Source: a virus
Taxonomy: Duplodnaviria > Caudoviricetes
Virus record (IMG/VR): IMGVR_UViG_3300045996_001810
Coordinates: 1 to 53,985 of that record
DNA: 53,985 nucleotides
Strand: one strand, 5' to 3'
Shown here: one piece after another, positions 757-47,859 of the stretch
How the letters are laid out: each line of letters begins with the position of its first letter
Numbering within the stretch: the first letter of the stretch is position 1
Program-made: the position numbers and the translations under genes
The notes under the pieces: model-generated
Told to the model about the DNA's origin: nothing
Seen by the model: only the letters and a program-made list of their open reading frames with translations
The model's database searches: none

Positions 757-3700
757 CTAGACGATCATCTCGACGTAAAGCACGGTCGCCCCGCCGGTCT
801 CCTGCCGGTCCAGCACGAGGAACTGGCTGCCGCGGGGCAGGATGACCTCGTTCTCGCCCGGGTGGCTCGAGCCGCCAGTGGTGTTCGCCCAGAGGCCCTT
901 CGCGCCGGCGGGCATCAGGATCTTGAGGTGCACCTGCCCCGACCAGGTGCCGCCGTTCACGCTCGAGCTCAGGAAGCCGTTGTCCTGGATGACCTGGCCC
1001 TTGTGCGCGTGCTGCTGCCAGCCCGCGAGCGTGGTCTTGCGGGAGAGCACGACGGGTTCGGGGATCGGGTCGGTCTTCGCGATCGCCGCGTCGAGGCGGG
1101 CGGCCTTCTGCGCGATGCTGACGCTGCCGACTCCCTCCGTCGACCGCAGCTGCGAGTTGATCTCGCTGTAGAGCCCGTTCGTGTAGCCGCTGACCGCGTC
1201 GCGCTCGGGGGCGGTGAGGCGCGCCTGGTTGTCGGCCTGCCACTTCTGGAAGGCGGCGCCGGCGGCGCTGTCGGTCTTGACGCCTGCGAACTGGGCGGGC
1301 GGCTCGTTGCCGCCGTACATGGCCGGGCCCTTGGGCTTCGCGGGCGCCTTCGCGGCGGCGCTGGGGGCGCTCGCGGCGGGCTTGAAGGCGTCGACGTGCG
1401 CCTGGCGCTCGTCGGCGGGCGGGACGTAGACCTTGCCGGGGGCGGCGCCCTGGGGGACCTCGACCTTGCCGCCGGCGGCGGTCCAGGCGGTGAGGTATCC
1501 GGTGTAAGCGTCGGTGTCGGGGTCGAGGACGGCGAGCTGCCCGTCGAGGGTCTCGAACGCGGCGCCCTTGGGCATCTCGGAGAACTTGAAGCCCTGGCTG
1601 GGCTGGAGCTTGGGGCCGATGGTCGCGGCGGTCGGCTTCTCGAGGCCGGGGGAGGGGGTCGCCGGGTCCTTGGCGGTGATGGGGGAGCCGTCCGCCTTCG
1701 TGACCTTCAGCGGCGCCTTGTAGCCGCCGTAGAGCTTCGTCTTCCCGTTCGACGCCTGCACCTTGACGTGCCCCAGCGGCGTGATCTCCTGCACGGTGTA
1801 GATCCAGCCGCCCTTCTTGTACTGGATCTTGTCCCCGGGCTGCAGGTCGAGGTCCTTGAGCTTCACCGCGTCGGTGTTCATCTGCCAGCCCTTGATGGGC
1901 TTCCCGGGCTTGGCGGCGGCGGCGATCTGATCCGCCACCGCATTCGCGACGTCGGGCGCCGGCGTGGCGGGAGCGGAGGGGACGCTCGAGGCGAACACGG
2001 GCTGCGAGGGCGCCGCGGGCACGGTCACGCCCGATGGCGTCTTGAGCAGCACGTCGCCGTTCCCGTTGACGCCCACTACTTCGAGCGGCGGGCCGTCGTC
2101 CGGCGCGATCTTGACCAGCGCGCCCGGCGCGTAGTCGCTCACCTTCGCGCCCGCCGGGGCGGCCATCAGCGGCGGCCCGTCCGCGGGCTTGGGCTTGGCG
2201 GCCGCGGCGGTCTGCTTGATCGCGGCGGCCGTGTCCTGGTCGCCCTTCGCGGCGTGGTACTCCGCGGCCTTGATCGCGAGCTGGACCTTCGCGAGGGCCT
2301 TCTCGAGGCCCTGCTTCGCCGCCGACGAGTTCGGCGCGGTCTTGTACGCCTTCTCGGTAAGCGCGCCCTGGATCGCCGCCTCGAGATCCTGCAGGCCCTC
2401 CTCGTCGGCCTGCAGGTCGTGCTTGACGACCTGGTAGTCGACGCCGCCCTTCTTCATCGTGTGCGTCGTCGTCGACTTGTACTTGATCGCCTTCTCGAGC
2501 TTGCGCGACGGCGCCGGCGAGGCCAGGTCGCCGGTGTACGTGCCGGCCACGGTCTCGACGACGCCGAGGGGGATGCCGCCGATCGCGACGATGAACCGGC
2601 CGCTCTCCGGATCCCGCGGGTGGTCCGCCGGGTTCCAGTCCTTCGCCAGCGCGAGGACCTGGTCCTCGGAGTCGAGGGCGACCGGGTCGCCGTCCGCGTC
2701 GAGCGTGACCTTGTGGACGGGCTGCGCGGTGTGCTGCACGATCGCGCGGATCTCTGACTCGCCGAGGCCGGCGTCTGAGAGCTCGACGATCTTCTGCAGC
2801 ACGTCGAGGCGCCGGGCGACGACCTCCCGCTGCCCCTGACCGGGGAGCGCGCCCACGACGGCGTTACGCTTCCCGAGGACGTCGCGGGCCTGGTCGAGGA
2901 TCTGCGGCCAGGACAGGTGCCCGAACACGGGGGCGCCCTGCGCGCTCTCGCGCAGGCTCCAGAGCTCCAGCGGCGCCTCAGACAGGCTGTGCTTCGGCTG
3001 CCCCTGCGCGCGGTAGCGGAGGCCGGCGCCGTTGTCGATCCGGACCGGCGTCCCGTCGTCGCGCACGAGAATGTTGTCCTGGGTGAGGCCGGCGACGTCC
3101 CAGTTGGCCAGGACCGCGTCGGCGACGAAGTGCTTGCCGATCCGGGCGACCGCCCGGACCTTCTCGTGCCCGCGCAGGTTCCCGAGCGGGGTCGCGGCGC
3201 CGACGTGCCGGGCGACCTTCACCGGCCCGTGCTCGGTCTTGTGGAGCTGGCTGTCGGGGACGGGGACGCCGAGCGCGCGGTAGGCGCGGTCGGTCGCGTC
3301 CTCCTCGAGCAGGTGCCCGACGTGCGTGCCCTTCTTCGTCACGTACAGGTTCCCGGCCGGGTCGGACCGCAGCTGCGCCCCGGTGGAGCCGCCGAGCTTG
3401 GCGACCTCCTTGAGCGTGTCGGGGTGCGGCGTCTTCGGCGCGAACTTCCCGGCCGGCGTGCGGGGGTGCTTGGCCTCGAACTCCGCGTCGAGATACCACG
3501 CCTCGAGGGCGGCCTGGTCCTCGAGGTTGGCGGGGGCCTCGTCGTTGAGCTCGTAGAAGAGCATGCACCGGCAGCGGTCCCAGCCGTAGCAGAACGGGTT
3601 GGGGACCGGGGCGAGGGCGGGGTCGTCGAGCTGACGGAGGACGTTGTCGTCGGCCTGGGCGCAGGCGGGGCACCGGTTCGCGTCCAGGATGGACGTGTAG

Positions 3701-5907: not shown

Positions 5908-6411
5908 TCAGGAGGCCGGGCCCCAGACGAGCAGGACGCACCCGAACGGCGGCCGCTCGTTCGGCTTGACCTCCAGCGCGTCGGGCGCGATGAAGCGCGG
6001 CCGGCCCGCGAGAAACTCGGTCCGGAGGCGCCCGCCGCGATCGCGCCATGGCTCGACGTGACGCTGCCACCAGCCCTGCTCGGTGCGGTTGGCCGGCAGG
6101 AGCATTGCGATCAGCTCGGCCTCGGTCTCGCGATGTGCCTTGATGACCCAGGGCTCGATCGAGCTGTACGGGGGGTTGCACCAAACGCGCTCGCCGGCCC
6201 AGGACTGCGCGAGGCCGTCCTCGACGGGCCCGTAGAACCGCTTGCACTTCGCGTTGTGCGGGAGCGCGCAGACGTCGATCGTGAACCCGAAGCGGAGGTC
6301 GAGGGGGCCGAAGGTCTCGGGCGTGGTCGCACGGTCGTCGACCTCGGGCCGGGCGCCGCGCGCGGTGAGCTGCTGCGGGTGGTTCTGGGCGCGGAAGCGA
6401 GCGAGCGTCAT
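5908..6411 (-). CDS. Phage Dam-like DNA N6-adenine methyltransferase
   Basis: TPETF...FTIDVCA...DGLAQSW.GERVWCNPPYS signature. Confidence 0.88.
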   Translation of the reverse strand: MTLARFRAQNHPQQLTARGARPEVDDRATTPETFGPLDLRFGFTIDVCALPHNAKCKRFYGPVEDGLAQSWAGERVWCNPPYSSIEPWVIKAHRETEAELIAMLLPANRTEQGWWQRHVEPWRDRGGRLRTEFLAGRPRFIAPDALEVKPNERPPFGCVLLVWGPAS

Positions 6412-6581
6412 GCGCGGCGACTATCGGGCCGGGGCGGGAGGACGCTGGTGGGCAGGCTCGCGTTGCACGAGCGGCAGCCGATCCCCGGGCTGCCCTCCAT
6501 CGCCCGGCGGTCGCGTTCGGGGACGAGCTCGAAGCCGCAGCGGCGGCAGTGGTCCGGCGGCTGCCCGTGCTTCCAGCCCAT
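6408..6581 (-). CDS. Small zinc-ribbon protein
   Basis: 57 aa with CRRC and CRSC; start overlaps the upstream stop (TGATG). Confidence 0.5.
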   Translation of the reverse strand: MGWKHGQPPDHCRRCGFELVPERDRRAMEGSPGIGCRSCNASLPTSVLPPRPDSRRA

Positions 6582-7246
6582 CAGGCGATCCGCTCCTGGC
6601 GGTCTTCCCACTCCGCGCCGGCGAAGAGGTCGGGCTGGGCGCTGTACTCCTCCCACGCGCGGCCGACCGCGCCGGACCCGGGGAATATGTCGTCCATCGT
6701 GTCGCCGCCGCGGGCGCCGAGGCAGTCGAAGAGCCAGTGGCAGAACGCGCGCGGCTTCATGCCGATGACGGCGCCCTTGGGGGCGCCGCCGGCCTTGAAG
6801 GTCCACTGTTCGGGGCTGAGTAGGAGCCAGTCGCGGACCATCGGGGCTCGGCGGGCGCGGCGGCGGCCGCCCCAGAGCAGGACGGGTTCCCAGCCGAAGT
6901 CGACGCTGACGCCGGGCTTCATCGGGGTCATGGGCTTGCACCAGGCGAGCACGCGGATCCCGGCCGGGCAGAGGGGTAGGACGTCGGGGAGCATGCGCGC
7001 GCCGGTGCAGAGGACCCAGCCGTGGGGGTAGTCGCGGGCGAGGCGGTCGACGAGCTCGCGGTGATCGACCTCGCCGCCGTAGTCCTCGTGGGCGCCGTAG
7101 TGCCGGCGGGCCTGGCCGGGGTAGGGCGGGTCGGCGAACGCGAACCGGAGTGGGCCGGCGTGCTCGGGCTGGCGGATGGCGGCCTCGGTGAGGCCGCGGT
7201 GCCGGCGCTGGCTGCGGGTGAGCTCGATCGGGGCGGGGTCGGTCAT
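6581..7246 (-). CDS. DNA N6-adenine/N4-cytosine methyltransferase (beta-class motif order)
   Basis: FADPPY catalytic motif precedes DIFPGSG SAM-binding motif. Confidence 0.82.
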   Translation of the reverse strand: MTDPAPIELTRSQRRHRGLTEAAIRQPEHAGPLRFAFADPPYPGQARRHYGAHEDYGGEVDHRELVDRLARDYPHGWVLCTGARMLPDVLPLCPAGIRVLAWCKPMTPMKPGVSVDFGWEPVLLWGGRRRARRAPMVRDWLLLSPEQWTFKAGGAPKGAVIGMKPRAFCHWLFDCLGARGGDTMDDIFPGSGAVGRAWEEYSAQPDLFAGAEWEDRQERIA

Positions 7247-24755: not shown

Positions 24756-27700
24756 TTAGCGGCGGCCGTTGGCGGCGGCGATCAGCGCCCGCGTGCGCTG
24801 CCCCGTCCGCTGGCTCACGACGTCGACCGGGCGGCCGTCCACCGTCGCCGACGCCCGGCCGTCCCGGTCCACGATCACCGTGACCTGCGGGGCCGCCACG
24901 CTCACCGGCGCGGGCCGGGCCTGGCCGGTCCCGTACGGGCCGTTCGGGTCCGGGGTGATGGTCTCCCCCGGGTGCACGACGGCGAGCTGCGTGTTGCCGA
25001 CGACCCGGCCGCCGTGCGCGAACGTGCCCAGCGACCGCTGTCCGAGGATGCCGGCGAAGCTCGAGAGCGCCCCGAACTGCTGGCCGGCGAGCCGCTCCCC
25101 CGCGATCGTCTGCGCGCCGATCTCGGCCAGGATCCGGTCGCGTTCCTCGCCCATCGCGATCGCGGGGTCCTGCCCGCGGGCGTCCTGGAGGTCCCCGAGA
25201 ATGTCGAGCCGTTCCATGCCGACCAGCTGCCCGCGCGCCCCGGCGAGGATCTGGCCGCTCAGGGTCTCCATGAGCGGCAGGACCTCGCCCTGGCCGCGCA
25301 GCCCGGCCCGGACCTCCGCGGCCCACCGGGCGAGCTCGCCCTCCCAGAAGCGGTGCGCGTAGGACTCGCCGCTGGAGTCAGTCAGGGGCGCCGGGCCGGC
25401 GGTCAGGCCGGGGGCGCCCTTGAGCGGCACGCCGCCGAGGTTGACGACGTTCTTCGCGGGGACCAGCGACCCGCGCGGCCGCTTCGCGCGCGCCTTCGCG
25501 GCGGCCTCCGCAGCCCGGGAGCGGTTACGGTTCTGGCGGCGGTTGAACCTGACCCGGGCCGGGAGCCCGGCGGCGGCCCGGCCGACGCGGCCGCCCCGCG
25601 CGTACCCCTGCCCGTTGGCGTCGACGATGTGCCCGTACCGGGCGATCATGTAGTTGATCGCGGCGACGAGGTTCGCGAGCGGATGCCGCTGACTGTTGGG
25701 CAGGCTCGGGTCCCGGTAGGCCTGGAAGGTGGAGCCGATGACCTGCGCGAGGCCGATGGACGGGTCGCCGTTGGCGGCGTTGACGTCCCAGTTGTTGACG
25801 GCGTTGGGGTCGCCGCCGGACTCCTGCATCACCCGCCGGAAGAGCGCGGCGGCATTCCCGGGCGTGTAGTGGCCGGTCATGCGGAGCGCCTGCTCGATCA
25901 GCGAGCGCAGGGCGGCGTCGCCCATCGCGGCGCCGCCCATCTGGCCGCCCCCGCCGCCGGCGCTCATGTTCGTGAACGCCTTGGCCAGGCTCGCGTTCGC
26001 CCCCGCGGCGACCGCGGCGACCGCGGCCTGCCCGGCCGCGCCCACGGCGCCGCCGGGCCCCGTCCACTTGGGGGCGGCGATCTGCTCGAGCGCGGCCATC
26101 GCCCCGCCGCCGCCGGCGCCGAGGTCAACGTGGAGGTGGTCGAAGTGGTCCGGCACCCGCCAGAGCGTGTGCCAGCCCTTCGCGCGGAGCATGGCGTTGA
26201 GGCGGTCCAGGGCGGCGGGCTCCCCGCCGGGGAACGTGTCGGCGTTGACGTCCAAGGCGCCGGCCTTGTAGTGCCAGCCGCCGGGGGCGTGCCCGCCGGT
26301 GACGCCGCCGAACGCGGGGTGCTCGCCGACCGCGTACCCCATGCTCTGAATCCACTTGCCGAGACCGACGATGCCGCCGCCCTGCATGCCCTTGCCGTGC
26401 CCGCCGCCGACCCAGTGCGGCTTGTTGACGCGCTGGAAGAGCCCGTCGAGGTCGGTCCCGAACGTGGTGGCCAGGGCGGCGTTGATCACGTCCTGCTGCG
26501 GGCCGTTGACGATCGCCTCGCCGAGCCCGACCCGGATGAGCTGGGTGTCCTGCCCGGCCTGCCCGGGCTTGCCGATGAACCCGCCGCCGGCCTTGCCCTG
26601 CACGTTGTTGCTCGCGACGTTGTCCGAGTCGGCGTTACGCTTCCCGGTGAGGGTGTCCCGCCCGTCGATGTAGCGGCTAGCCTGCTCCCCGGTGATCCCG
26701 TACATCGCGAGGTTCTTGCGCATCAGCCGCTCGATCTCGCGCATCCCCTCCTTCGTGGAGAGCGTGCCCTCGCGCATCGAACGCTTCACGTTGATGATCG
26801 CCGCGTCGAAGTTCTTGGACAGCGCGCTCTTGCCCTCCGAGCTGGAGGCGTCCATCTCCGTCTTGATCGCGCGCATGCTCAGCCGCACGTTCGTGCGCAG
26901 CTGCTCGACACTGTTGCTGACGCCCTTGCGCATCCGGTCGATCGTGCCGGCGACCTTGAGCGCCCCCTCCGTCGTGACCTTCGTGTCGATCTCGACGGCG
27001 ACGTCCTGCATCGCGAGCTTCTGCAGCGCCTCGACGCGCTCGATCACCCGGGGGAGGTCCTGGGTCGCCGCCTGCCGGGCGTCGTCGGAGAGGTCGTCGA
27101 ACGCCTTGTCGATCGGGACGTAGGCGCCCTTGAAGCCCTCGCCGGTGTCGCGGACCTGGTCGCCGAGCGCCTTCAGGCCGGTGACGTCACGGCGGCGGAC
27201 GAGCCGGTCGAGTTGCTCGTTGTACTTCTCCAGCGCCTTGCTCTCCCGGCCCTCCTCGAGGGCGCGGACGCCGCTGTAGGCGGCGACCCCGGCCGCCCCG
27301 GCGGCCATCCCCCACGGGCCGCCGAGCACGCCCAGGCCGGCGCCGATCGCGCCGCGGGCGCCCGCCTTGGCCACCGCCCCGCCGACCGCCCCCCCGGCAG
27401 CACCGCCCGCGCCGGGGGTCCAGACCATCGCGCCGCCCTTCCCGCGCGTCCACGAGCCCGCCGCCGCCCCCGCCGCCGCGCCCAGCACGCTTCCGGCCCC
27501 GGCCGCGGCGCCCACCCCGCCCGCGACCGTGCCCGCGGTCTTCAGCCGCTTGATCAGCGTGTCGACGCCGCTGATCGCCGCGCCGATCCCCAGGATCTTG
27601 TAGAGGGTCATCCCCGCCAGACCCACGCTCAGGGCCTCCTTGAGGCCCGGGCCGCCTATGTCGATGAGCCAGGTGATCCCGTCGACGACGTCCCCGATCA

Positions 27701-29108
27701 GCTCGACGGCCAGGGCGAGGCCGCCGCCGTCCTCGGAGAGCTCCGCGAAGAGCTCCACCACGCTCACGAGCGTGTCGATCAGCGCCGGGCCCAGGGTGGT
27801 CGCGAGGTTGTCGAGCGCCTCCTCCAGGGCCGGGACGAGCTCCTCACGGATCTGCCGGATCAGCTCCGGACTGTTCTCGTTCCCGCCGAGCCTCGCCCAC
27901 GCCTCCGCGAGGTCCCCGATCAGGCCGGCGACCTCCTCCGTCGCTTCCTTCGCGTGGTCGAAGTAGTCGGCCATCTCGTTCTGGCCCTCGACCGACCCGG
28001 TCCACTCCTCCCAGCGGCCGGTGACGTCCTCGAGGGACTGCATGAGATCGCGGCCGGACTCGTAGCCGGCGCCGCCGATGTTGACCAGCGTGCCGATCAG
28101 GTTCCCGCCAATGTCGTGGAGGTCCTGCAGCACCCAGCGGGTCTCGCGGAAGAACGCGGCGGTCTCCCCGCTCTTCTCGCCCGCCTGCGCCCACGCCTCG
28201 ACGTTCTCTGAGCCGGCCTTCGCGGCCTGGGTGAGCCAGGACACGAACGGGTCGGCGGCCACCAGGACGTCCCCGAGCGCGTCGACCAGGTTGAGCGCGG
28301 CGTCGCCGAGGTCCTCGAGCACCTCCGCGTTACGGTTCCCGATGACCTCCATCTCGCGGCCGAACTCGCGGCCGCCGACCATCCGGCCCGCCTGCTCGGC
28401 CACGTACCCCATCGCGTCCCCGGTGCGCTCCAGCACGCCCTCGAGCACGTCGAGGTTGCGCAGGGCCGCGTCCCCGCCCGCCTGCACGCCCGGGAACAGG
28501 CCGCGCGCGGACGCGGCCGTCAGGCCCTCCGCGACCCCCCGGTTCTGGCCGATCCACTTCACGAAGTCGCGCTGCTCCGCGGAGAGCTCGCGCATCGCCT
28601 GCCGCGCCTTCTTCGCGCTCTCCTCGGTCCCGTCGAGCGCGTCGGTCTGCGCCTTCAGGGCGTCCCCGACGCCGCGCGAGGCGACCAGGACGGTGCCGAG
28701 GCCCTGCCCGAGCGCGGTGTAGCTCTGCGCGACCCCGACCACGGCGCCCGCGGCCGGCGCGGAAGCGGCGATGATCGCGGTCAGGCCGGCGGCGACGTCG
28801 AAGAGCGCGTCCGCGGCCAGGCCGGCGCCGGCGCCGAGCGCCGGGAACTTGATCAGCCCGATCGCGTTACGGGTGAAGGTGAACTTCTGATTGACCCGGT
28901 TAAGGGTCGTGTCCAGGCCGCGCAGCCGGACGTCGAGGGCGTCGACGTCGCGCGCGTTCGCGCGCGTGGTCGCCCCGTACTTCTGCTGGCTCTTGTCCGC
29001 CGTGGCGGCGGCCTTGTCGACCGCCTGGATGGAGGCGATCGCCTGGCCGGCGGCGGCGCCGAGGTCCTTCGCGTCGCCGGTGATCTCGACGTGGATGCGG
29101 TCGGCCAT
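24756..29108 (-). CDS. Tape measure protein with M15-like peptidase motifs and lytic transglycosylase (SLT) domain
   Basis: 1450 aa, Ala/Gly-rich helical; WHYKAGALD...HFDHLHV; QESGGDPNAVNNWDVNA..GDPSIGLAQ. Confidence 0.92.
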   Translation of the reverse strand: MADRIHVEITGDAKDLGAAAGQAIASIQAVDKAAATADKSQQKYGATTRANARDVDALDVRLRGLDTTLNRVNQKFTFTRNAIGLIKFPALGAGAGLAADALFDVAAGLTAIIAASAPAAGAVVGVAQSYTALGQGLGTVLVASRGVGDALKAQTDALDGTEESAKKARQAMRELSAEQRDFVKWIGQNRGVAEGLTAASARGLFPGVQAGGDAALRNLDVLEGVLERTGDAMGYVAEQAGRMVGGREFGREMEVIGNRNAEVLEDLGDAALNLVDALGDVLVAADPFVSWLTQAAKAGSENVEAWAQAGEKSGETAAFFRETRWVLQDLHDIGGNLIGTLVNIGGAGYESGRDLMQSLEDVTGRWEEWTGSVEGQNEMADYFDHAKEATEEVAGLIGDLAEAWARLGGNENSPELIRQIREELVPALEEALDNLATTLGPALIDTLVSVVELFAELSEDGGGLALAVELIGDVVDGITWLIDIGGPGLKEALSVGLAGMTLYKILGIGAAISGVDTLIKRLKTAGTVAGGVGAAAGAGSVLGAAAGAAAGSWTRGKGGAMVWTPGAGGAAGGAVGGAVAKAGARGAIGAGLGVLGGPWGMAAGAAGVAAYSGVRALEEGRESKALEKYNEQLDRLVRRRDVTGLKALGDQVRDTGEGFKGAYVPIDKAFDDLSDDARQAATQDLPRVIERVEALQKLAMQDVAVEIDTKVTTEGALKVAGTIDRMRKGVSNSVEQLRTNVRLSMRAIKTEMDASSSEGKSALSKNFDAAIINVKRSMREGTLSTKEGMREIERLMRKNLAMYGITGEQASRYIDGRDTLTGKRNADSDNVASNNVQGKAGGGFIGKPGQAGQDTQLIRVGLGEAIVNGPQQDVINAALATTFGTDLDGLFQRVNKPHWVGGGHGKGMQGGGIVGLGKWIQSMGYAVGEHPAFGGVTGGHAPGGWHYKAGALDVNADTFPGGEPAALDRLNAMLRAKGWHTLWRVPDHFDHLHVDLGAGGGGAMAALEQIAAPKWTGPGGAVGAAGQAAVAAVAAGANASLAKAFTNMSAGGGGGQMGGAAMGDAALRSLIEQALRMTGHYTPGNAAALFRRVMQESGGDPNAVNNWDVNAANGDPSIGLAQVIGSTFQAYRDPSLPNSQRHPLANLVAAINYMIARYGHIVDANGQGYARGGRVGRAAAGLPARVRFNRRQNRNRSRAAEAAAKARAKRPRGSLVPAKNVVNLGGVPLKGAPGLTAGPAPLTDSSGESYAHRFWEGELARWAAEVRAGLRGQGEVLPLMETLSGQILAGARGQLVGMERLDILGDLQDARGQDPAIAMGEERDRILAEIGAQTIAGERLAGQQFGALSSFAGILGQRSLGTFAHGGRVVGNTQLAVVHPGETITPDPNGPYGTGQARPAPVSVAAPQVTVIVDRDGRASATVDGRPVDVVSQRTGQRTRALIAAANGRR

Positions 29109-30092: not shown

Positions 30093-31115
30093 CTAGACGA
30101 TGTTGGCCTGGGAGGCGTGCACGACGCGGGCGATCACCGACGTGGTCGGGCTGGCGTACGTCATCGCGGCGACGTCGATGTAGACGGTCTTGCCGTCCGG
30201 GTCGAGCTTGTTGACCTTCGCCCCGACGAAGTGCAGCTGCGGCAGGCTCAGGTCGAGCTGCCGGAACGTGGTCGCGGTCGCGTCCTCCGACGTGTTGCGC
30301 ATCACCGCGCGGAACGAGCCGGTCGCCAGGGCGAGCGGCACGACGGTCCCGCCGCCGTACTTGATCGCGTCGTAGAGGGTGGCGCCCTCGTACTTCAGCG
30401 TCAGGTCCAGGTCGTAGTCGGCGTTGAGCTCGATGACGTCCTCACGGAAGAGCTCCGTGGTCTGGATGCCGTCGTCGACGTTGCGCTTCGCGGAGAACTT
30501 GAACTTCGTGATCTTCGTGTTGCCGGCCCCGTTGAGCACGTAGGACCCGCGCGGGAAGAACACGGGGTCGACGCTCTCGCGGGTCGCGGTCAGCGCCGAC
30601 GCCGCGGCGTTGCGCCGGTACGGGGTGCCACCGCCGATGACCGCGAACGAGAGGCGCGCCGGCGAGCCGGCCTCGGCCTCGAGGTCCAGGGTCGTGATCT
30701 TCGCGTTGCTGACCCGCTCGATCTGATCGGAGAACTTCTGCTCGACCGTCCAGTACGGCAGGGTCGCGGCGGGGATCAGCTCCGTGCGCTGGCAGCCGGT
30801 CGGGATCCCGTTCGCCGCGGAGGCGACCTCCGGCGTGCCCGACTTGGCGCCCAGGACGCCGGCGAAGCCGTACAGCGACAGGTTCGAGCGGGCGTTGCCG
30901 TTCGCGGCCCCGTCCATCTTGATCATGCGCTTGTAGCGGAAGGCGACCTCCTGGCCGTCCCCGCCCTCGCGCTCGCTGACGACGTCCTCGTCGAGCTCGA
31001 GCGCCGTCCCGTCCTTGTGCTTGAGGAACAGGAACGTGGTCGCCTCGGTGTCCTTCGCGGACTGCTTGCCGATCGCGAAGTAGTCGCCGGGCTGGTTGGT
31101 CGAGTAGCCGGGCAT
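30093..31115 (-). CDS. Major tail tube protein
   Basis: 340 aa, beta-rich, YFAIGKQS N-terminus; immediately upstream of chaperone and tape measure. Confidence 0.82.
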   Translation of the reverse strand: MPGYSTNQPGDYFAIGKQSAKDTEATTFLFLKHKDGTALELDEDVVSEREGGDGQEVAFRYKRMIKMDGAANGNARSNLSLYGFAGVLGAKSGTPEVASAANGIPTGCQRTELIPAATLPYWTVEQKFSDQIERVSNAKITTLDLEAEAGSPARLSFAVIGGGTPYRRNAAASALTATRESVDPVFFPRGSYVLNGAGNTKITKFKFSAKRNVDDGIQTTELFREDVIELNADYDLDLTLKYEGATLYDAIKYGGGTVVPLALATGSFRAVMRNTSEDATATTFRQLDLSLPQLHFVGAKVNKLDPDGKTVYIDVAAMTYASPTTSVIARVVHASQANIV

Positions 31116-31378
31116 CAGGCGCTACCTCCGGCCGCGGCCGGGGCGGCGATCGTGGCCTCGGGGGCGGGGTTGCCCTCGGGCTCGGGCTCGGACTCGGCGT
31201 CGGCTCGCTTCGCGGCGGCCTTGGCGGCCTTCTCGTCGACGGGCTTCCAGTTGTCGGACGCGAGCGCCTCTCCGGGGGGGACGAGGTACTCGTCGCCGTA
31301 GCGGAGCTGCGCCCCGCTGGCGGTCACGACGTCGCCGGGGCCAACCCAGCGTGCGGGGATCAGGGCGCGTTCGCTCAT
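31115..31378 (-). CDS. Small virion-region protein
   Basis: 87 aa MSERALIPARWVGPG; start defined by the motif at 31385. Confidence 0.65.
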   Translation of the reverse strand: MSERALIPARWVGPGDVVTASGAQLRYGDEYLVPPGEALASDNWKPVDEKAAKAAAKRADAESEPEPEGNPAPEATIAAPAAAGGSA

Positions 31379-31416
31379 ACGCCCGCGACTATCCGACCCC
31401 ACAGAGGCCGGGAACG

Positions 31417-31445
31417 CCGGAGGGCGCCCGGCGGGCGCCCTCCAG
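31417..31445 (-). terminator. 13-bp hairpin closing the tRNA-like transcript
   Basis: CTGGAGGGCGCCC-GCC-GGGCGCCCTCCGG. Confidence 0.6.
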
Positions 31446-31446
31446 T

Positions 31447-31501
31447 TGCCTAGCCTTCTCGGCCACCGCGGCGTGCGCCGCGACCCGGACTCGAACCGGG
31501 G
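31447..31501 (-). ncRNA. Circularly permuted tRNA-like module (T-arm, closed acceptor stem, D-arm)
   Basis: CCCGG-TTCGAGT-CCGGG; TCGCGGC-GCAC-GCCGCGG; TG-GCCGAGAAGGCTAGGC. Confidence 0.72.
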
Positions 31502-31503
31502 TA

Positions 31504-31574
31504 TAGCGCGCCGGGGTGCTGCCCCCCGCGCCCCGGGGTTATGAGCCCTGGGTAGGCGCTGGCCTTCGCGCGCA
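31504..31574 (-). tRNA. Degenerate initiator tRNA-Met(CAT)-like element
   Basis: GGG-CTCATAA-CCC anticodon arm; 1:72 mismatch over a 6-bp acceptor stem; A73; short D-loop, non-canonical T-loop, no CCA. Confidence 0.55.
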
Positions 31575-31580
31575 CGGTGA

Positions 31581-31586
31581 AGCGTA
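31581..31586 (-). promoter_or_regulatory. -10 element TACGCT in front of the tRNA-like RNA
   Basis: CGTTACGCT context as at 49976-49984; 6 nt before the predicted 5' end. Confidence 0.55.
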
Positions 31587-31599
31587 ACGGATGGCCCGG

Positions 31600-32130
31600 T
31601 CAGCCGACCTCGGAGCGGCGGGCCCACATCACGAACGTGGACCACATGACCAGCTGGCCGCCGTGATCAGGGTCGCGCATCGCCGGCCCCCACTGGACCG
31701 TCCGGGCCCCGGTCCCCCACGCCCCGTCGCCGGTCTCAGACGCCGACGTCCCCAGCGCCCGGCCGCGCAAAGCGACGGACGCGACCGCGCCGAGGTAGCG
31801 GCGCATCGCCCTGGGGAGGAGCCGGTACTCCGGCGAGAAGAGGTAGACGACGATCCCGAGCTCGTGGTAGCCGGTCACGTCTGAGCCGGTGTCGTCCTCC
31901 AGGCGGCTCTCGACGTCCAGGATCCCGAGGACGGGCCCGTTGCCGAGGTAGGGCTCGAGCTCGCCGGGCGGGGGGGCGTGGTCGAGGTAGTAGCCGGGGG
32001 CGGCCAGGAGCGCGGCGTCCTCCGGTTCGAGGCCCGACGCGCGCGACGCGAGCTCGGCGGGCAGCTCTGACTCGAGGCGGTCGAGGAGCGTGGCCACGAG
32101 CGGCGTGTTGAGCCGGAACTGGGTGCCCAT
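31600..32130 (-). CDS. Tail terminator-like protein
   Basis: 176 aa; synteny between neck and tail tube genes. Confidence 0.6.
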   Translation of the reverse strand: MGTQFRLNTPLVATLLDRLESELPAELASRASGLEPEDAALLAAPGYYLDHAPPPGELEPYLGNGPVLGILDVESRLEDDTGSDVTGYHELGIVVYLFSPEYRLLPRAMRRYLGAVASVALRGRALGTSASETGDGAWGTGARTVQWGPAMRDPDHGGQLVMWSTFVMWARRSEVG

Positions 32131-32621
32131 CAGCGTGCCCCTCCGAGCGGCGCCGTCCGGCGGATCGCGGTCAGCCACTCGCTGAAGACCCGGTCCACCG
32201 CGTTACGCTTCTGCGCGTCGGTGAGGGCGAGGATCTTGCGCTGCGGCATGTGAATGGTGCCGTCCTGGTGGTAGCCGGCCTTCTCGTCGACCGGGTGGTA
32301 GACCATCTTCTTCGGCGTCACGACGACCGCGGCGCCCTTGTTGAGCATCGCCGCCTTCATATCGCCGGAGGCCTCGAGGATCGGCTTCGGCCCGTACCGG
32401 GCGAGCTTCCACGCCGCGTACTCCGGCGACAGGGGGGTCCAGGGGTGGCCGAGGCCTCCCTTGCCCTCCGTCGCGAACTGCTGCTCGACGGCGTCGAGGA
32501 TGACGTCGGCCATCCGGTCCAGCGGCTCGGAGAGGTCCTGCGCCTCCTCCCCGTAGACCTGGAAGGCGCGGCTGATCTGCTGCTCGCCGCTGACGGCGAA
32601 GCCGACCCTGACGAACGGCAC
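32130..32621 (-). CDS. Virion morphogenesis/neck protein (Mu gpG-like)
   Basis: WTPLSPEYAAWK...ILEASG...YHQDGT.HMPQRKIL. Confidence 0.85.
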   Translation of the reverse strand: MPFVRVGFAVSGEQQISRAFQVYGEEAQDLSEPLDRMADVILDAVEQQFATEGKGGLGHPWTPLSPEYAAWKLARYGPKPILEASGDMKAAMLNKGAAVVVTPKKMVYHPVDEKAGYHQDGTIHMPQRKILALTDAQKRNAVDRVFSEWLTAIRRTAPLGGAR

Positions 32622-33089: not shown

Positions 33090-33185
33090 CTATCCCCGCC
33101 GGTGGCCGCAATGGATGCACCGGCGCCGCTCGAGCAGGTTCCACCGGCCGCAGAACGTGCACCACCACCAGGGGGACCACCTCAT
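33090..33185 (-). CDS. 31-aa Trp/Cys-rich zinc-finger micro-protein
   Basis: WWWCTFCGRWN...CIHCG; ATGA overlap. Confidence 0.45.
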   Translation of the reverse strand: MRWSPWWWCTFCGRWNLLERRRCIHCGHRRG

Positions 33186-34777
33186 GCCGCCGCCAGCACG
33201 CCGAGCGCGGCCAGGTCGCTCACCTCGCGCGCGACCCCGTCCCACCCGAGCTCCGACGCGGCGGGCGGCCCGTGCAGCTGCGCGTACCGTTGCTGGTCCG
33301 GGTCGGTGAGACCGCGGACGACCTCGGCGATGAACGCCTCCCGCCACCCGGCGCTCGCCGGGTCGCCCTGCACCAGCGCCCCGACCTTCACGGTCTCCCG
33401 CAGCGCACCCCACGCCGACGCGACGACGACGCACCCGGCAGCCTGCGCCTCCATCGCCCCGATACACGAGGTCTCGTGGAAGGGGATGCCGTGCGGCGTG
33501 TTGTAGGACGGCGCGCACCACACGAGGCTCTCGCGCATCAGCCGCGCGAGCGCGGGCTGCGACTGGGACTCGAGGAGCTCGACGCCGGGCTGGTCGGCGA
33601 GCCGGCGGACCTCCGCGGCGTGCTGGCCCACGGTGTGGTCCTGGGCGGCGATCCGCCAGTACACCGGCGAGTAGCAGGCGGCGAGCTCGGCGAACGGGAC
33701 GCCGGCCTTCTCGGCCTGGCGGCGGATCGTTGGCCACCACCGCAACAGGAGGTCCAGGCCCCGGTCCGGGCTGGAGGTGTAGAGGACGCGCGGCTGGCGG
33801 GCGAGCTCGGGGCCGGAGAACCGGTCGAGGTCGATGCCGTTACGGATCCGGCGGATCTTGCCGTCGAGGAACGGGTACATGCCGCGGACGTGCCCCTCGT
33901 GCCACGCGGAGAGCACGAGCACGTCGTCGATCCGCGCGGCGCGGGCGGGGGTGAGCCGGTCGCCGCAGTCGGTGTCGTGCAGCCAGAGCATCCGCCGGCG
34001 CGCCCGCGCCGGGCGGTCGAACACCTCGGGCACCCGTGAGCTGATGAGGAGGTCGACGGGGGCGAGCGGGTCGAAGACGGCGTGGTGGCGGTAGATGACG
34101 TCGCGGTGCACGCACTCCTCGACGTCGCCGTAGACGGTGACGACCCAGCCCAGGTCCGACAGGGCGGACGCGAGCCGGATCGCGGCAGTCTCCGACCCGC
34201 CCAGGCCCTTGCGCTCGGGGTCGTTCGGGCTCCACTTCTGCCAGCCGGGCCCGGTGTAGATCGTCGCGGTCCCGACCCGCTGGACGGGCTGGTAGGAGCC
34301 GAACGTGACCGTGTCCTCCCCGACGCCCATATCCAGGAGGGTGCCGCGGCGCCGGAGCTCGTCGGCGAGGTCGATCGCCCGGTAGGCGCGGAGGTGGTGC
34401 GGGTTGTGCCCGTCGCCGAACGCGCCGTCAGGGGTGCTGACGTAGATCCGGCCGCCGGGGGCGAGCATGCGCTCAGCCACGCCGAGAAGTGAAGCAGGGT
34501 CGGGGACGTGCTCGATCAGCTCGAACAGGATCACCGCGTCGTAGGTCCCGGCCTCGAACAGGCGCGGCGCGTCCTCGGCGAGGCCGACCTTCGCCCGGCC
34601 GTCGACGCGGCCCTTGGTCTTGCGGCGCAGCCGCCGGATCCGGGCGTTGCAGAACGCGACCGCGTTGGCGTCGGCGTCCAGGGCGTCGACGGTGATGGGG
34701 CCGGGGTGCTCGCGGGCGGCCCAGGCGGTGACGTGCCCGTCCGAGGCGCCGAGGTCCAGGACCCGTAGGCGCTTCAC
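33182..34777 (-). CDS. Class I SAM methyltransferase fused to GT-B (GT4-like) glycosyltransferase
   Basis: VLDLGASDG, FELIEHV, YVSTP; GLGGSET, YTSSPDRGL, ETSCIGAMEAQAAG. Confidence 0.88.
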   Translation of the reverse strand: MKRLRVLDLGASDGHVTAWAAREHPGPITVDALDADANAVAFCNARIRRLRRKTKGRVDGRAKVGLAEDAPRLFEAGTYDAVILFELIEHVPDPASLLGVAERMLAPGGRIYVSTPDGAFGDGHNPHHLRAYRAIDLADELRRRGTLLDMGVGEDTVTFGSYQPVQRVGTATIYTGPGWQKWSPNDPERKGLGGSETAAIRLASALSDLGWVVTVYGDVEECVHRDVIYRHHAVFDPLAPVDLLISSRVPEVFDRPARARRRMLWLHDTDCGDRLTPARAARIDDVLVLSAWHEGHVRGMYPFLDGKIRRIRNGIDLDRFSGPELARQPRVLYTSSPDRGLDLLLRWWPTIRRQAEKAGVPFAELAACYSPVYWRIAAQDHTVGQHAAEVRRLADQPGVELLESQSQPALARLMRESLVWCAPSYNTPHGIPFHETSCIGAMEAQAAGCVVVASAWGALRETVKVGALVQGDPASAGWREAFIAEVVRGLTDPDQQRYAQLHGPPAASELGWDGVAREVSDLAALGVLAAA

Positions 34778-46446: not shown

Positions 46447-47400
46447 CTAGAGGGTGTCGCCGATCTCGTAGCCGAGCTCGGGCGCGCAGACCTTCTCGTC
46501 GACGCACTCCCACGCGCGGATATTGTCGACGGGCGGGTCATCCGAGCGCCACCGGTCGACCTCCTCCGGCAGCGCCTTGAACGAGTAGCCGACCGAGGGG
46601 ATGCCCCAGCCGCCGCCGCGCGGGCTGACGTGCAGGAGCCGGACGCTGTCGCCCCAGATTTCCGTGAGGTCGGTCACGGTGGCGCCCTCGTTGCCCGTGT
46701 CGTACAGGGCGCCCTGCGGGACGACGACGTCCATGCCCCACAGCTTCGACGGGAGGATGAACTCGCCGGTGCTGAGGATCTGCTGCGCGTTGACCGTGTA
46801 CTTGAGCAGCTCCCTGATGTCCTGCTGCACCGCGACCTCCGCGGCGACCAGGTACGGGATCACGATGACGTTCGGGACGCGGCCGGTGCGCTTGTAGACG
46901 GCGAGCTTGCCCGTCTTGACGTCGGCCTCGATCGTCGCGGCGTCCGTGTTCCACTTGTTCGACGTGTTGGCGCCCAGGGTGAGCGACCCGCCGTTCGAGG
47001 TGGTGCGCAGGAGCTGGGCGGCGCGGACCTCGCGGGCGAGCGCCATCTGCCCGAGCAGGTGCTCGAGCTTCTGCATCTCGAGCTTGAGCGCGGCGTGCGC
47101 CTGACGGCGCTCCTTCGCGGTGATCGTCGCCTTGAGCCGGAAGTCCTCGCAGAGGAAGCTGTCCGTGCTCCACTCGAACGCGACCTCGGGGGTCTCGGCG
47201 CGGTCGGCGACCCGGGACTCGGCGAGCACCCGGAACCAGTACTCCTTCGTGAAGACCGGGTACTGGCCGGCGTCCTTGTCCACGGTGATGGACGGCAGGA
47301 CCCGGTTGTAGATGAAGCCGTCCGGGGTGTAGCGGCGCGCGACCTCCGTGAGGACGGGGTCGATGATCTGAAGATCGCGGGTGTTGTTCGCGTAGGCCAT
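46447..47400 (-). CDS. Major capsid protein
   Basis: 317 aa, IDPVLTEVA...ELGYEI; GGAGG RBS; follows protease and decoration genes. Confidence 0.85.
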   Translation of the reverse strand: MAYANNTRDLQIIDPVLTEVARRYTPDGFIYNRVLPSITVDKDAGQYPVFTKEYWFRVLAESRVADRAETPEVAFEWSTDSFLCEDFRLKATITAKERRQAHAALKLEMQKLEHLLGQMALAREVRAAQLLRTTSNGGSLTLGANTSNKWNTDAATIEADVKTGKLAVYKRTGRVPNVIVIPYLVAAEVAVQQDIRELLKYTVNAQQILSTGEFILPSKLWGMDVVVPQGALYDTGNEGATVTDLTEIWGDSVRLLHVSPRGGGWGIPSVGYSFKALPEEVDRWRSDDPPVDNIRAWECVDEKVCAPELGYEIGDTL

Positions 47401-47418
47401 GGTGGTCTCCCGCCTCCG

Positions 47419-47859
47419 TTACGGGGTGCCGGAGAGGGGGCGGGGGTTGACGTAGAGCGAGAAGACCTCGCCGGCGGCGGCGGGGGTCTCGGACTGGCCG
47501 ATCGTGTACCGCAGGGAGCCGGACGCGGCCGCGACGGGGCCCATCGCCCCGTTGCTCGAGGCGATGTTGACCTCGGCGCCGACGCCGATGGAGGCGCCCG
47601 CGACGACCTTGACGGTGTTGCCCTGGCCGTGCACGGTGACGGCGGCCGGGTACTCGGCGCCGGACGCGGCGGGCTGCGCCTTCGCCAGGGCGATGCCGAG
47701 CGGGAGCTCGTTGTAGGTGGCGATCGGGAGCACCGCGCGCGGCTGGGTGCCGGTCGGGGCGCTCTTGACGGGCATGGCGCCGCCCCCCGAGAGGGGGCCG
47801 ACGAGGGTCGCGATCGCGATGCCGGGGAACTTGACCCCGTTGTGGCGCTCGTGGGCCAT
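47419..47859 (-). CDS. Capsid decoration/cement protein (DUF2190-like)
   Basis: Gly/Ala-rich, VKVVAGASIGVGAEV...IGQSETPAAAGEVF; synteny. Confidence 0.75.
   Translation of the reverse strand: MAHERHNGVKFPGIAIATLVGPLSGGGAMPVKSAPTGTQPRAVLPIATYNELPLGIALAKAQPAASGAEYPAAVTVHGQGNTVKVVAGASIGVGAEVNIASSNGAMGPVAAASGSLRYTIGQSETPAAAGEVFSLYVNPRPLSGTP

Follow-up and report, generated by a model that had tools for sequence, protein, structure and literature searches.

A circularly permuted tRNA-like module of YrlA topology in a 201-nt insertion between neck and tail genes of a high-GC soil phage

In red algae and some archaea, circularly permuted tRNA genes carry the 3' half of the tRNA first, are bounded by bulge-helix-bulge termini and, after circle splicing, give rise to normal decoding tRNAs; two-piece transfer-messenger RNA (tmRNA) likewise has its tRNA-like domain, with the T arm, in permuted order. 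The closest described counterpart of the element presented here is the YrlA class of bacterial Y RNAs, which is composed of stem-loops termed T, acceptor-like and D, in many cases preceded on the upstream side of T by a V stem-loop, together with a Ro60-binding module carrying the motif GNCGAAN0-1G (Chen 2014, PMC4201824), and which resembles a permuted tRNA with a closed acceptor (Chen 2014; Wang 2018, bioRxiv 10.1101/312249). Chen 2014 stress the conserved T and D stems of YrlA, describe Y RNAs adjoining tRNAs in some bacteria, give the 7-base-pair (bp) acceptor-like helix of M. smegmatis YrlA as the authors' reason for the cutting of this RNA by RNase P and the adding of CCA, and warn that tandem tRNA junctions are false positives for YrlA; Wang 2018 give the conserved D stem as GCUC/GAGC. 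The subject of this report is an element of 55 nucleotides (nt) on the minus strand (31447-31501) of the virus record IMGVR_UViG_3300045996_001810, a high-GC soil phage (~73% G+C) with a completeness rating of 63%; "the window" below denotes the whole 53985 nt of that record. In this element a T arm, a closed acceptor-like helix and a D arm follow one another in the order described for YrlA, and together they form the core of a 201-nt non-coding insertion within the structural operon. We tentatively read the element, from its sequence, as a possible tRNA-derived mimic of the Y-RNA type that would be transcribed with the late genes and recognised by tRNA enzymes.

Read 5' to 3' on the minus strand, the module consists of the following parts:

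31501, minus strand: C, the analogue of C48, at the end of the 5-nt linker UAUAC
31500-31484, minus strand: T arm, a 5-bp stem with the loop TTCGAGT
31483-31477, minus strand: 3' strand of the acceptor, TCGCGGC
31476-31473, minus strand: tetraloop GCAC, which closes the acceptor-like helix
31472-31466, minus strand: 5' strand of the acceptor, GCCGCGG
31465, minus strand: T, position U8
31464, minus strand: G, position G9
31463-31448, minus strand: D arm, a 3-bp GCC/GGC stem with the loop GAGAAGGCTA containing A14, G15 and G18G19
31447, minus strand: A, position A26

The T arm, closed acceptor, U8 and D arm listed in an initial annotation of this DNA can all be read directly in the minus strand, the one omission from that list being G9 (31464) between U8 and the D arm, and the permuted order that it gave is the order found. 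The acceptor-like hairpin (31483-31466) is paired at 7/7 positions, including one G-U, at -12.3 kcal/mol, and the D stem of three pairs is presumably of the class II style. Position 3-70 is C-G, in agreement with the annotation's remark that no G3-U70 alanine identity is present. Its further remark that the element has no anticodon is correct for the 55 nt themselves, but a hairpin with a CUCAUAA loop and a second hairpin lie just upstream and a GC hairpin lies just downstream.

Compared with YrlA (Rfam RF02553), the window element shows the same succession of a V hairpin, a linker of ~5 nt ending in C, a UUCGA T arm, a closed acceptor, two bases and a GG D arm, and thereby the topology by which YrlA was defined here, namely the UUCGA T arm, the closed acceptor and the GG D arm in this order. 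As in YrlA, the nucleotides responsible for tertiary contacts can be placed (U8, A14, R15 with C48, G18G19 and the TTCGA loop), and both kinds of element occur in actinophages. The acceptor-like helix of seven pairs matches that described in Chen 2014 for M. smegmatis YrlA, an RNA that is bound by Rsr and encoded beside the Rsr gene. Unlike YrlA, the window has a closed local hairpin as its anticodon-stem analogue, and the element is a recent 201-nt insertion within a structural operon. A Ro60-binding helix with GNCGAAN0-1G was found neither by eye nor by folding of the element's surroundings; CGAAGG occurs at 31567-31562, but the first position of the motif differs and no partner strand was found, and a ATCCGTTA site lacks the CGAA part. 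A search with PF05731 for a TROVE gene gave 0 matches in the 53985-nt record while detecting its positive controls, which bears out the annotation's statement that no Ro60/Rsr gene is present in the window, and it gave none in the records of the relatives or in one related metagenome-assembled genome. Further marks of YrlA are binding by Rsr and modification by TruB and DusA. Strict membership in the YrlA family, which the annotation's comparison with bacterial Y RNAs might be taken to imply, has to be given up: having no Rfam YrlA match at E<=10, no Ro60-binding helix and no Rsr neighbour, the element is not a YrlA member in the strict sense.

Standard detectors pass over the module. ARAGORN reports 0 tRNA or tmRNA genes in the window, where no contiguous cloverleaf is present, and Rfam gives no match in the window at the gathering threshold. 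The annotation had proposed the Rfam YrlA, tRNA and tmRNA models as a check; run on the element, they gave no YrlA match, no tmRNA match (E<=10, on 81 nt and 501 nt) and, at E<=10, a truncated match to the 3' half of tRNA (12.3 bits, E 3.1), beside a mascRNA match of 12.1 bits (E 3.2). The Rfam YrlA model is itself weak on high-GC actinophage Y RNAs, since Ro-adjacent RNAs from L125/L120, Gordonia phage Cashline and two mycobacteriophages score 21.7-45.6 bits with it, against a cut-off of 69. A covariance model, R1, was examined alongside it, built with the window excluded from five TROVE-adjacent YrlA modules, of which a single viral contig supplied two, bacterial genomes another two and Cashline the fifth. 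The two bacterial training sequences came from an Rfam YrlA scan of 151 Actinomycetota genomes, 53 of which had sub-threshold matches; among 35 Actinomycetota loci inspected, 31 were ordinary tRNAs or tRNA pairs, two lay beside TROVE genes and two had neither feature. Nothing concluded here depends on the unpublished genomes G049, which contains L158, and G149.

With filters off, the top R1 match in the window, the best of 67 listed, is the element itself (31444-31506, minus strand), aligned over the full model length (1-64) at 32.6 bits with an E of ~6e-8 by a rough calibration. Its D arm aligns to the D arm of the model, the fourth pair being non-standard. Five held-out Rsr-linked modules score 34.7-51.5 bits. 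The second-best window match (47371-47447, plus strand, 16.5 bits) has a 26-nt insert in its "T loop" and is probably not tRNA-like. When 12 modules including the window's were aligned, 97.9% of the cells in paired columns were paired and 12/16 pairs had changed on both sides, while 0/500 shuffles reached this level and slid controls were 30-50% paired; this alignment was fitted to R1 and its rows represent a class, homology between rows not being established.

The arrangement is hard to obtain by chance. The T-loop motif GGTTCGANTCC by itself occurs once in the window with 0.14 expected, and at least once in 14/100 shuffles. The full structural filter, in which a given T arm is followed by a perfect hairpin of at least 7 bp, then T-N, then a D-like arm, is passed by 85/20000 shuffles of the T arm's own next 95 nt (19/20000 with a loop of at most 8 nt) and at 269/107530 arbitrary window positions (55/107530 with such a loop). 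In a comparison set of 119 phage sites, defined by a T loop followed by TGGCCGAG within 15-30 nt and made up nearly entirely of tandem tRNA junctions, complementarity between the acceptor strands was 7/7 at one site, 6/7 at three and at most 5/7 at 115. The sole 7/7 site (L120) is a YrlA directly upstream of a TROVE gene (PF05731, 2e-33), scored sub-threshold at 28.6 bits by the Rfam YrlA model. L125 (the same as L120, minus strand) carries three tandem Y-RNA-like genes (1822-1884, 2067-2183 and 2338-2468) upstream of one Rsr/TROVE gene. Folded alone, the 63-nt module forms the T and acceptor hairpins in its minimum-free-energy structure unforced; in longer transcripts, forcing the full module costs 3-7 kcal/mol relative to the minimum. 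The module is real and non-random.

The element lies in a minus-strand structural module whose genes around the site are as follows:

32130-32621, minus strand: Neck1/tail completion gene (phrog_26, PF05069)
31600-32178, minus strand: structural-module gene of unknown family, next upstream of the gap, whose C-terminus aligns to its end with homologues
31387-31394, minus strand: GGATAGTC, ~10 nt 5' of the ATG of the small open reading frame (ORF), outside (just downstream of) the insertion
31115-31378, minus strand: small conserved ORF whose N-terminus aligns with those of homologues
30093-31115, minus strand: tail tube gene (PF18906, 4e-10)
24756-29108, minus strand: tape measure gene

The gene at 31600-32178 has no PHROG or Pfam match. 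Since the N-terminus of the small ORF aligns with those of its homologues, its start is placed at the ATG at 31378, and because the end of the upstream gene at 31600 is fixed in the same way, 31379-31599 is a true intergenic gap of 221 nt and a 176-aa ORF across it is spurious. The sequence GGATAGTC is conserved in the window, L001/L135, L003 and L134, and may be a promoter -10 element or mark a leaderless start. Elsewhere in the structural module, 33182-34777 (minus strand) encodes a 531-aa fusion of an S-adenosylmethionine methyltransferase domain and a glycosyltransferase group 1 domain, with a weak PHROG match labelled tRNA methyltransferase (2e-06).

Two runs of soil metagenome sequencing, X1 and X2, which belong to two different studies, contain parts of the stretch. 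In each of them one contig matches 31328-31400 with three differences and one gap and is joined directly to 31602, with four other letters between; these short contigs come from a close relative, ~96% identical, that is without 31401-31601. The filled form is represented in run X1 as well, by a contig of 316 nt that is identical to 31229-31544 and may derive from the window's own source sample. The element is thus a 201-nt presence/absence difference between near-identical phages, and an insertion is likelier than a deletion because distant relatives have a short gap. These were found through the tail tube protein and comprise viral contigs at 36-52% identity (four loci), genome contigs at 51-55% (two) and metagenome contigs at 43-47% (five). 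For the six of them to which the gap figures apply (L001-L004, L134 and L135; L136-L139 are left out), the two genes are 17-29 nt apart in five (L001, L002, L003, L004 and L135), and the sixth, L134, has 445 nt of unrelated sequence at the cassette site. None of the relatives found in this way carries the element. Judged by tail tube protein (55% identity), the nearest of them is L134, in which a tRNA-Ser/His/Ile cluster (1018-1320, minus strand) lies on the opposite strand beside the same structural genes, with a tandem duplication of ~40 nt of the tRNA-Ile 3' end. The best blastn matches (161 nt, E<=10), in Streptomyces Camvirus phages (Endor1, Amela and others), were rejected as homologues, since they share a T-arm-like hairpin without acceptor or D arm. 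In Endor1 and Amela (L176 and L177, both 2490-2530) this is an unannotated perfect hairpin with a 6-bp stem and the loop TTCGAGT in an intergenic gap.

Around the module, the cassette contains a series of further hairpins:

31401-31601, minus strand: non-coding insertion of 201 nt that holds the whole element, with the module as its core
31597-31585, minus strand: GGGCC...ATCCGTTA, located where the insertion begins on its 5' side and similar to the 5' signature seen in actinophage Y RNAs
31556-31573, minus strand: D-arm-like hairpin (repeat D1), situated 109 nt upstream of the D arm, which it repeats imperfectly in direct orientation (76% over 17 nt)
31550-31534, minus strand: hairpin with the loop CUCAUAA (CAU) and 4/5 stem pairs, resembling the anticodon arm of initiator/Met tRNA
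31533-31506, minus strand: V hairpin of 8-9 pairs with a loop of 6-7 nt (-22.2 kcal/mol), followed by the 5-nt linker UAUAC that ends in the C48 analogue
31445-31417, minus strand: terminator-like GC hairpin of 13 bp at the place of the anticodon arm (-29.4 kcal/mol)

The GGGCC...ATCCGTTA pattern has one match in the window, with 0.01 expected, and among 348 loci it recurs twice in L126 and also in L129 and L133, all three of them Ro-locus phages, and a single time in L333; as it was written down after the window had been compared with Ro-locus Y RNAs, it is only weak evidence and serves as a lead. The GC hairpin is not an intrinsic terminator by the usual definition, as it has no U tract and its tail reads GGCGUUCC. 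The cassette is single-copy, blastn-short against the window giving no second copy. A 13-mer of the CAU hairpin is also present in phage tRNA-Met genes called by ARAGORN, and between the hairpin (31534-31546) and the region around the small ORF's start codon (31373-31385) there is 85% complementarity over 13 nt, which may be chance or anti-start pairing.

A connection with tRNA genes emerges from L210, in which an intact tRNA-Met (708-782) is directly followed by a T/closed-acceptor/D module (781-841; 50.3 bits) and then by a GC hairpin. This unit (708-900) is collinear with the window cassette, with roughly half of the positions identical; it lies right after an integrase gene in a record with direct terminal repeats and no TROVE match. 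The comparison suggests that the window cassette is such a tRNA-Met-plus-module unit with a decayed tRNA part. The module is intact, and the adjoining tRNA-Met-like part is degenerate: it lacks a 5' acceptor strand that would match, and the hairpin standing where a T arm would be has a changed loop. A search of 401 Actinomycetota genomes for an unpermuted tRNA that has this acceptor pair found none. When the element is re-permuted, ARAGORN with its default settings calls tRNA-Ser(gga); a tRNA-Met(cat) containing a 22-nt "intron" is called only once the threshold is relaxed, and tRNA-Leu(cag) is called in 64 window constructs. The junctions of the constructs are arbitrary, and this test is non-discriminating, since a genuine YrlA (L120) is also called, in 79 constructs. 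Of 49 pattern sites in other phages (L180-L228), 30 fall within an ARAGORN-called tRNA, 28 of these being tRNA-Met(cat). Many of these loci have phage tRNA-Met(CAU) genes that are 84-97 nt in length and possess a long variable arm, and all keep the GGGCTCATAACCC anticodon arm.

Modules of this kind are found in other phage contigs. Across 237 tRNA-rich phage loci, 39/1931 T arms are followed by a perfect closed helix of at least 6 bp and a D-like arm, as against 53/9655 when the downstream sequence is shuffled. Among the 39 modules, many of which have tetraloops, 26 lie outside any ARAGORN tRNA, six are junctions of two called tRNAs and seven are mixed. The stand-alone modules (L210, L323, L314, L087, L066, L295, L335 and others) have the topology of the window element, often with a tetraloop, and are not called as tRNA; unlike it, most lie within tRNA arrays, and several have a closing flank helix or an upstream canonical anticodon arm. 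Their homology to the window element is not established. In a TROVE search in which the L120 control matches, no match was found in nine records that contain such modules; G159, G160 and G165 among these have a completeness rating of 100%. At the gathering threshold, Rfam finds only tRNA, tmRNA and GOLLD among the best 150 of 181 matches in ten orphan-module loci. GOLLD RNAs at L323:7387-7800 (200.9 bits) and L335:9181-9694 (156.3 bits) adjoin tRNA arrays with orphan permuted modules, and L323 has a tmRNA at 6248-6649.

In four AT-rich modules (L027, L117, L276 and L295) a canonical anticodon arm precedes the T arm at a distance of exactly 5 nt, and inverted repeats flank the module. Such an arm at this distance is present in 5/26 modules, the fifth being the genuine YrlA of L120, and in 109/5200 shuffles. 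Uncalled T/closed-acceptor/D units in AT-rich arrays occur in L027 (minus strand, ~3178 and 664), L117 (minus strand, ~6511) and L276 (~2590 and 9821), with further ones in L292 (minus strand, ~4359), L295 (~748) and L335 (~2772, 2938 and 3065). They have complementary flanks, GGAAAC...CAGCAA upstream and GTTTCC downstream, and several carry the anticodon arm 5 nt before the T arm; in sequence they resemble tRNA genes that have been circularly permuted, with the break at position 26/27. A full-text literature search, which did not cover supplements, found nothing on orphan modules or on permuted tRNA genes of phages.

The data presented above have led us to favor, tentatively, a model in which the core of a tRNA-derived, circularly permuted YrlA-type RNA would have arrived within the non-coding cassette of 201 nt that now separates the small ORF and tail tube gene from the last gene on the neck side. 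The RNA would be transcribed from the minus strand together with the late structural genes, no promoter of its own having been found. Because its T and D loops would dock as a tRNA elbow, host enzymes that read the tRNA shape would act on it; RNase P would most likely cut in the GCAC loop 5' of G31472, as the acceptor has seven pairs like that of M. smegmatis YrlA. Such a cut would leave a tRNA-shaped RNA nicked into two pieces, the 3' one of which could undergo trimming and have CCA added to it; the RNA might then act in trans and independently of Ro60, as a mimic or decoy for a factor that binds the elbow or the acceptor. The role of mimic or decoy, already put forward in the initial annotation, is one that we infer from the sequence. 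Since the contig has no Ro protein gene, the element probably represents either a tRNA mimic that stands on its own or what is left of tRNA genes after rearrangement.

A number of results weigh against this model. R1 scores ordinary tandem tRNA junctions at 24-62 bits (503 matches at E<=0.01 in 100 loci), and therefore measures likeness to a tRNA module, not Y-RNA identity, while the Rfam YrlA model finds nothing even at E<=10 on 81 nt and 501 nt. The D stem is GCC/GGC in place of the GCUC/GAGC that Wang 2018 give as conserved. The minimum-free-energy fold of the whole gap (z -1.87) pairs the acceptor strands otherwise, and folding did not find a helix joining the 5' and 3' ends, the only options being of 4-5 bp. 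A 24-mer across the T arm and acceptor has 0 exact matches in viral contigs, and blastn of 801 nt against phage records gave no match; covariation for this element alone is unobtainable because no homologue was found, and its intactness here says little on selection because the insertion is recent. A sigma-70-type promoter is absent from a consensus scan around the element, a consensus terminator has 0 sites in 30900-32300, and no RNA run is among the sequencing runs found to hold the stretch. An Rsr gene may, moreover, lie elsewhere in the phage, given that the record is only 63% complete.

Of the competing explanations, the one that we regard as unlikely but take most seriously holds that the 201 nt are an inert relic, a functionless fragment of a rearranged or tandemly duplicated tRNA or tRNA-like array brought in by illegitimate recombination. 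The T arm and 3' acceptor strand would then come from one copy and the 5' acceptor strand and D arm from a second copy of the same tRNA, and the strands would pair because both copies had the same acceptor. Like a tandem tRNA junction, the window has a T arm and 3' acceptor strand, a short spacer, a 5' acceptor strand, U8 and a D arm, and R1 cannot separate the two, the very false positive flagged in Chen 2014; identical tandem tRNA genes only 4 nt apart do exist in Actinomycetota (tRNA-Asn pairs, L149 and L151). The weak 109-nt periodicity of the D-like repeat, the CAU anticodon-arm look-alike with the upstream hairpin at the T-arm position, the cluster of tRNA genes that L134 carries in this module, where one tRNA 3' end is duplicated, and the dispensability of the insertion in a close relative also speak for a relic. 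Unlike a tandem junction, however, the window is flanked by no complete tRNA, its acceptor strands pair 7/7 and its spacer is a 4-nt loop, GCAC, which is not a discriminator base plus CCA. No canonical parent is in sight, neither on either side of the element, where ARAGORN and Rfam see no tRNA, nor among the 401 genomes; the module is flawless while its flanks are degenerate, and stand-alone tetraloop modules recur in other phages above the shuffle rate. A cis-acting role in the late operon, which seems improbable but is likewise a serious competitor, would have the hairpin stack and a tRNA-like RNase P site cut the neck-tail transcript, giving a structured 5' end to the tail mRNA or attenuating read-through and so shifting the ratio of neck to tail proteins. 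The position on the coding strand between co-oriented genes that lie close together in five of the six relatives, the missing promoter, the -29.4 kcal/mol hairpin 38 nt upstream of the next start codon and the complementarity of the CAU hairpin to the small ORF start are consistent with this, and the weak mascRNA resemblance merely recalls the principle of tRNA-like 3'-end processing. Yet no U tract follows the hairpin and no consensus terminator is present, the relatives manage without such an element, the 13-nt complementarity may be a chance match of the kind often seen between two copies, and a hairpin function alone has no need of a complete T-loop/D-loop elbow.

That the element is a true circularly permuted tRNA gene, processed by RNase P and at its 3' end, with or without ligation, into an aminoacylatable tRNA with the CAU or V hairpin as anticodon arm, is very improbable. 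The window shares with the permuted genes of red algae and archaea the placement of the 3' half before the 5' half, some of its re-permuted constructs are called as tRNA, viral contigs often carry class-II-like tRNA-Met(CAU) genes whose variable arms are long, and the four AT-rich phage modules combine an anticodon arm 5 nt before the T arm with inverted repeats. Against it stand the arbitrary construct junctions and the equal success of ARAGORN with a re-permuted YrlA, the V loop GGCAGCA, which has no U33, and the CAU hairpin, which lies 37 nt from the T arm, contains an A-C mismatch and has no connection to the D arm. Neither an end-joining motif of the bulge-helix-bulge type nor a joining enzyme or RNA ligase gene was noticed in the window or its flanks, where no search aimed at them was made, and we know of no such motif or enzyme in bacteria. 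With two-piece tmRNA the window shares a permuted tRNA-like domain with a T arm; it differs in having no ARAGORN or Rfam tmRNA match, a C-G pair at position 3-70 and no tag reading frame. Least probable of all is an origin as the core of a phage attachment site (attP) or another tRNA-gene fragment used for integration. In many phages the attP site reproduces the 3' portion of a tRNA of the host, the relatives G152 and G153 are classed as proviruses, and in L210 the tRNA-Met and module come right after an integrase gene. Searches for tyrosine and serine recombinases (PF00589 and PF00239) nevertheless gave 0 matches in the window, the site lies within a structural operon, the 5' half of the tRNA that follows the 3' half is needless for an attP, and no matching tRNA was found in the 401 genomes searched.

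A broader proposal, to which we assign a low probability, is that the element belongs to a widespread and undescribed phage class of Ro60-independent permuted tRNA or tRNA-like genes, found mostly in tRNA arrays and mobilised here into a structural operon, whose transcripts RNase P and 3'-end enzymes would convert into nicked or re-joined RNAs acting as decoys or as functional permuted tRNAs. If true, functional permuted tRNAs, represented by the members with canonical anticodon arms and inverted repeats, would be the first in bacterial viruses; decoys would be aimed at host factors that attack or sense tRNAs.

YrlA-type Y RNAs are known only as partners of Ro60/Rsr and have been sought only beside a Ro60 gene. 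A YrlA-type domain without a Ro60-binding stem or Rsr suggests that the tRNA-shaped half can act, or at least persist and move, alone, and the orphan modules in phage contigs rated complete point likewise to a Ro60-independent tRNA-shaped half. In the same soil samples, phages that have the 201 nt occur together with near-identical ones that do not, and these constitute a natural experiment. Even if the element is only a relic, it still documents a way in which tRNA-dimer junctions can seed Y-RNA-like genes; as a tRNA mimic acting on its own, it would bear on which factor reads the conserved elbow of Y RNAs.

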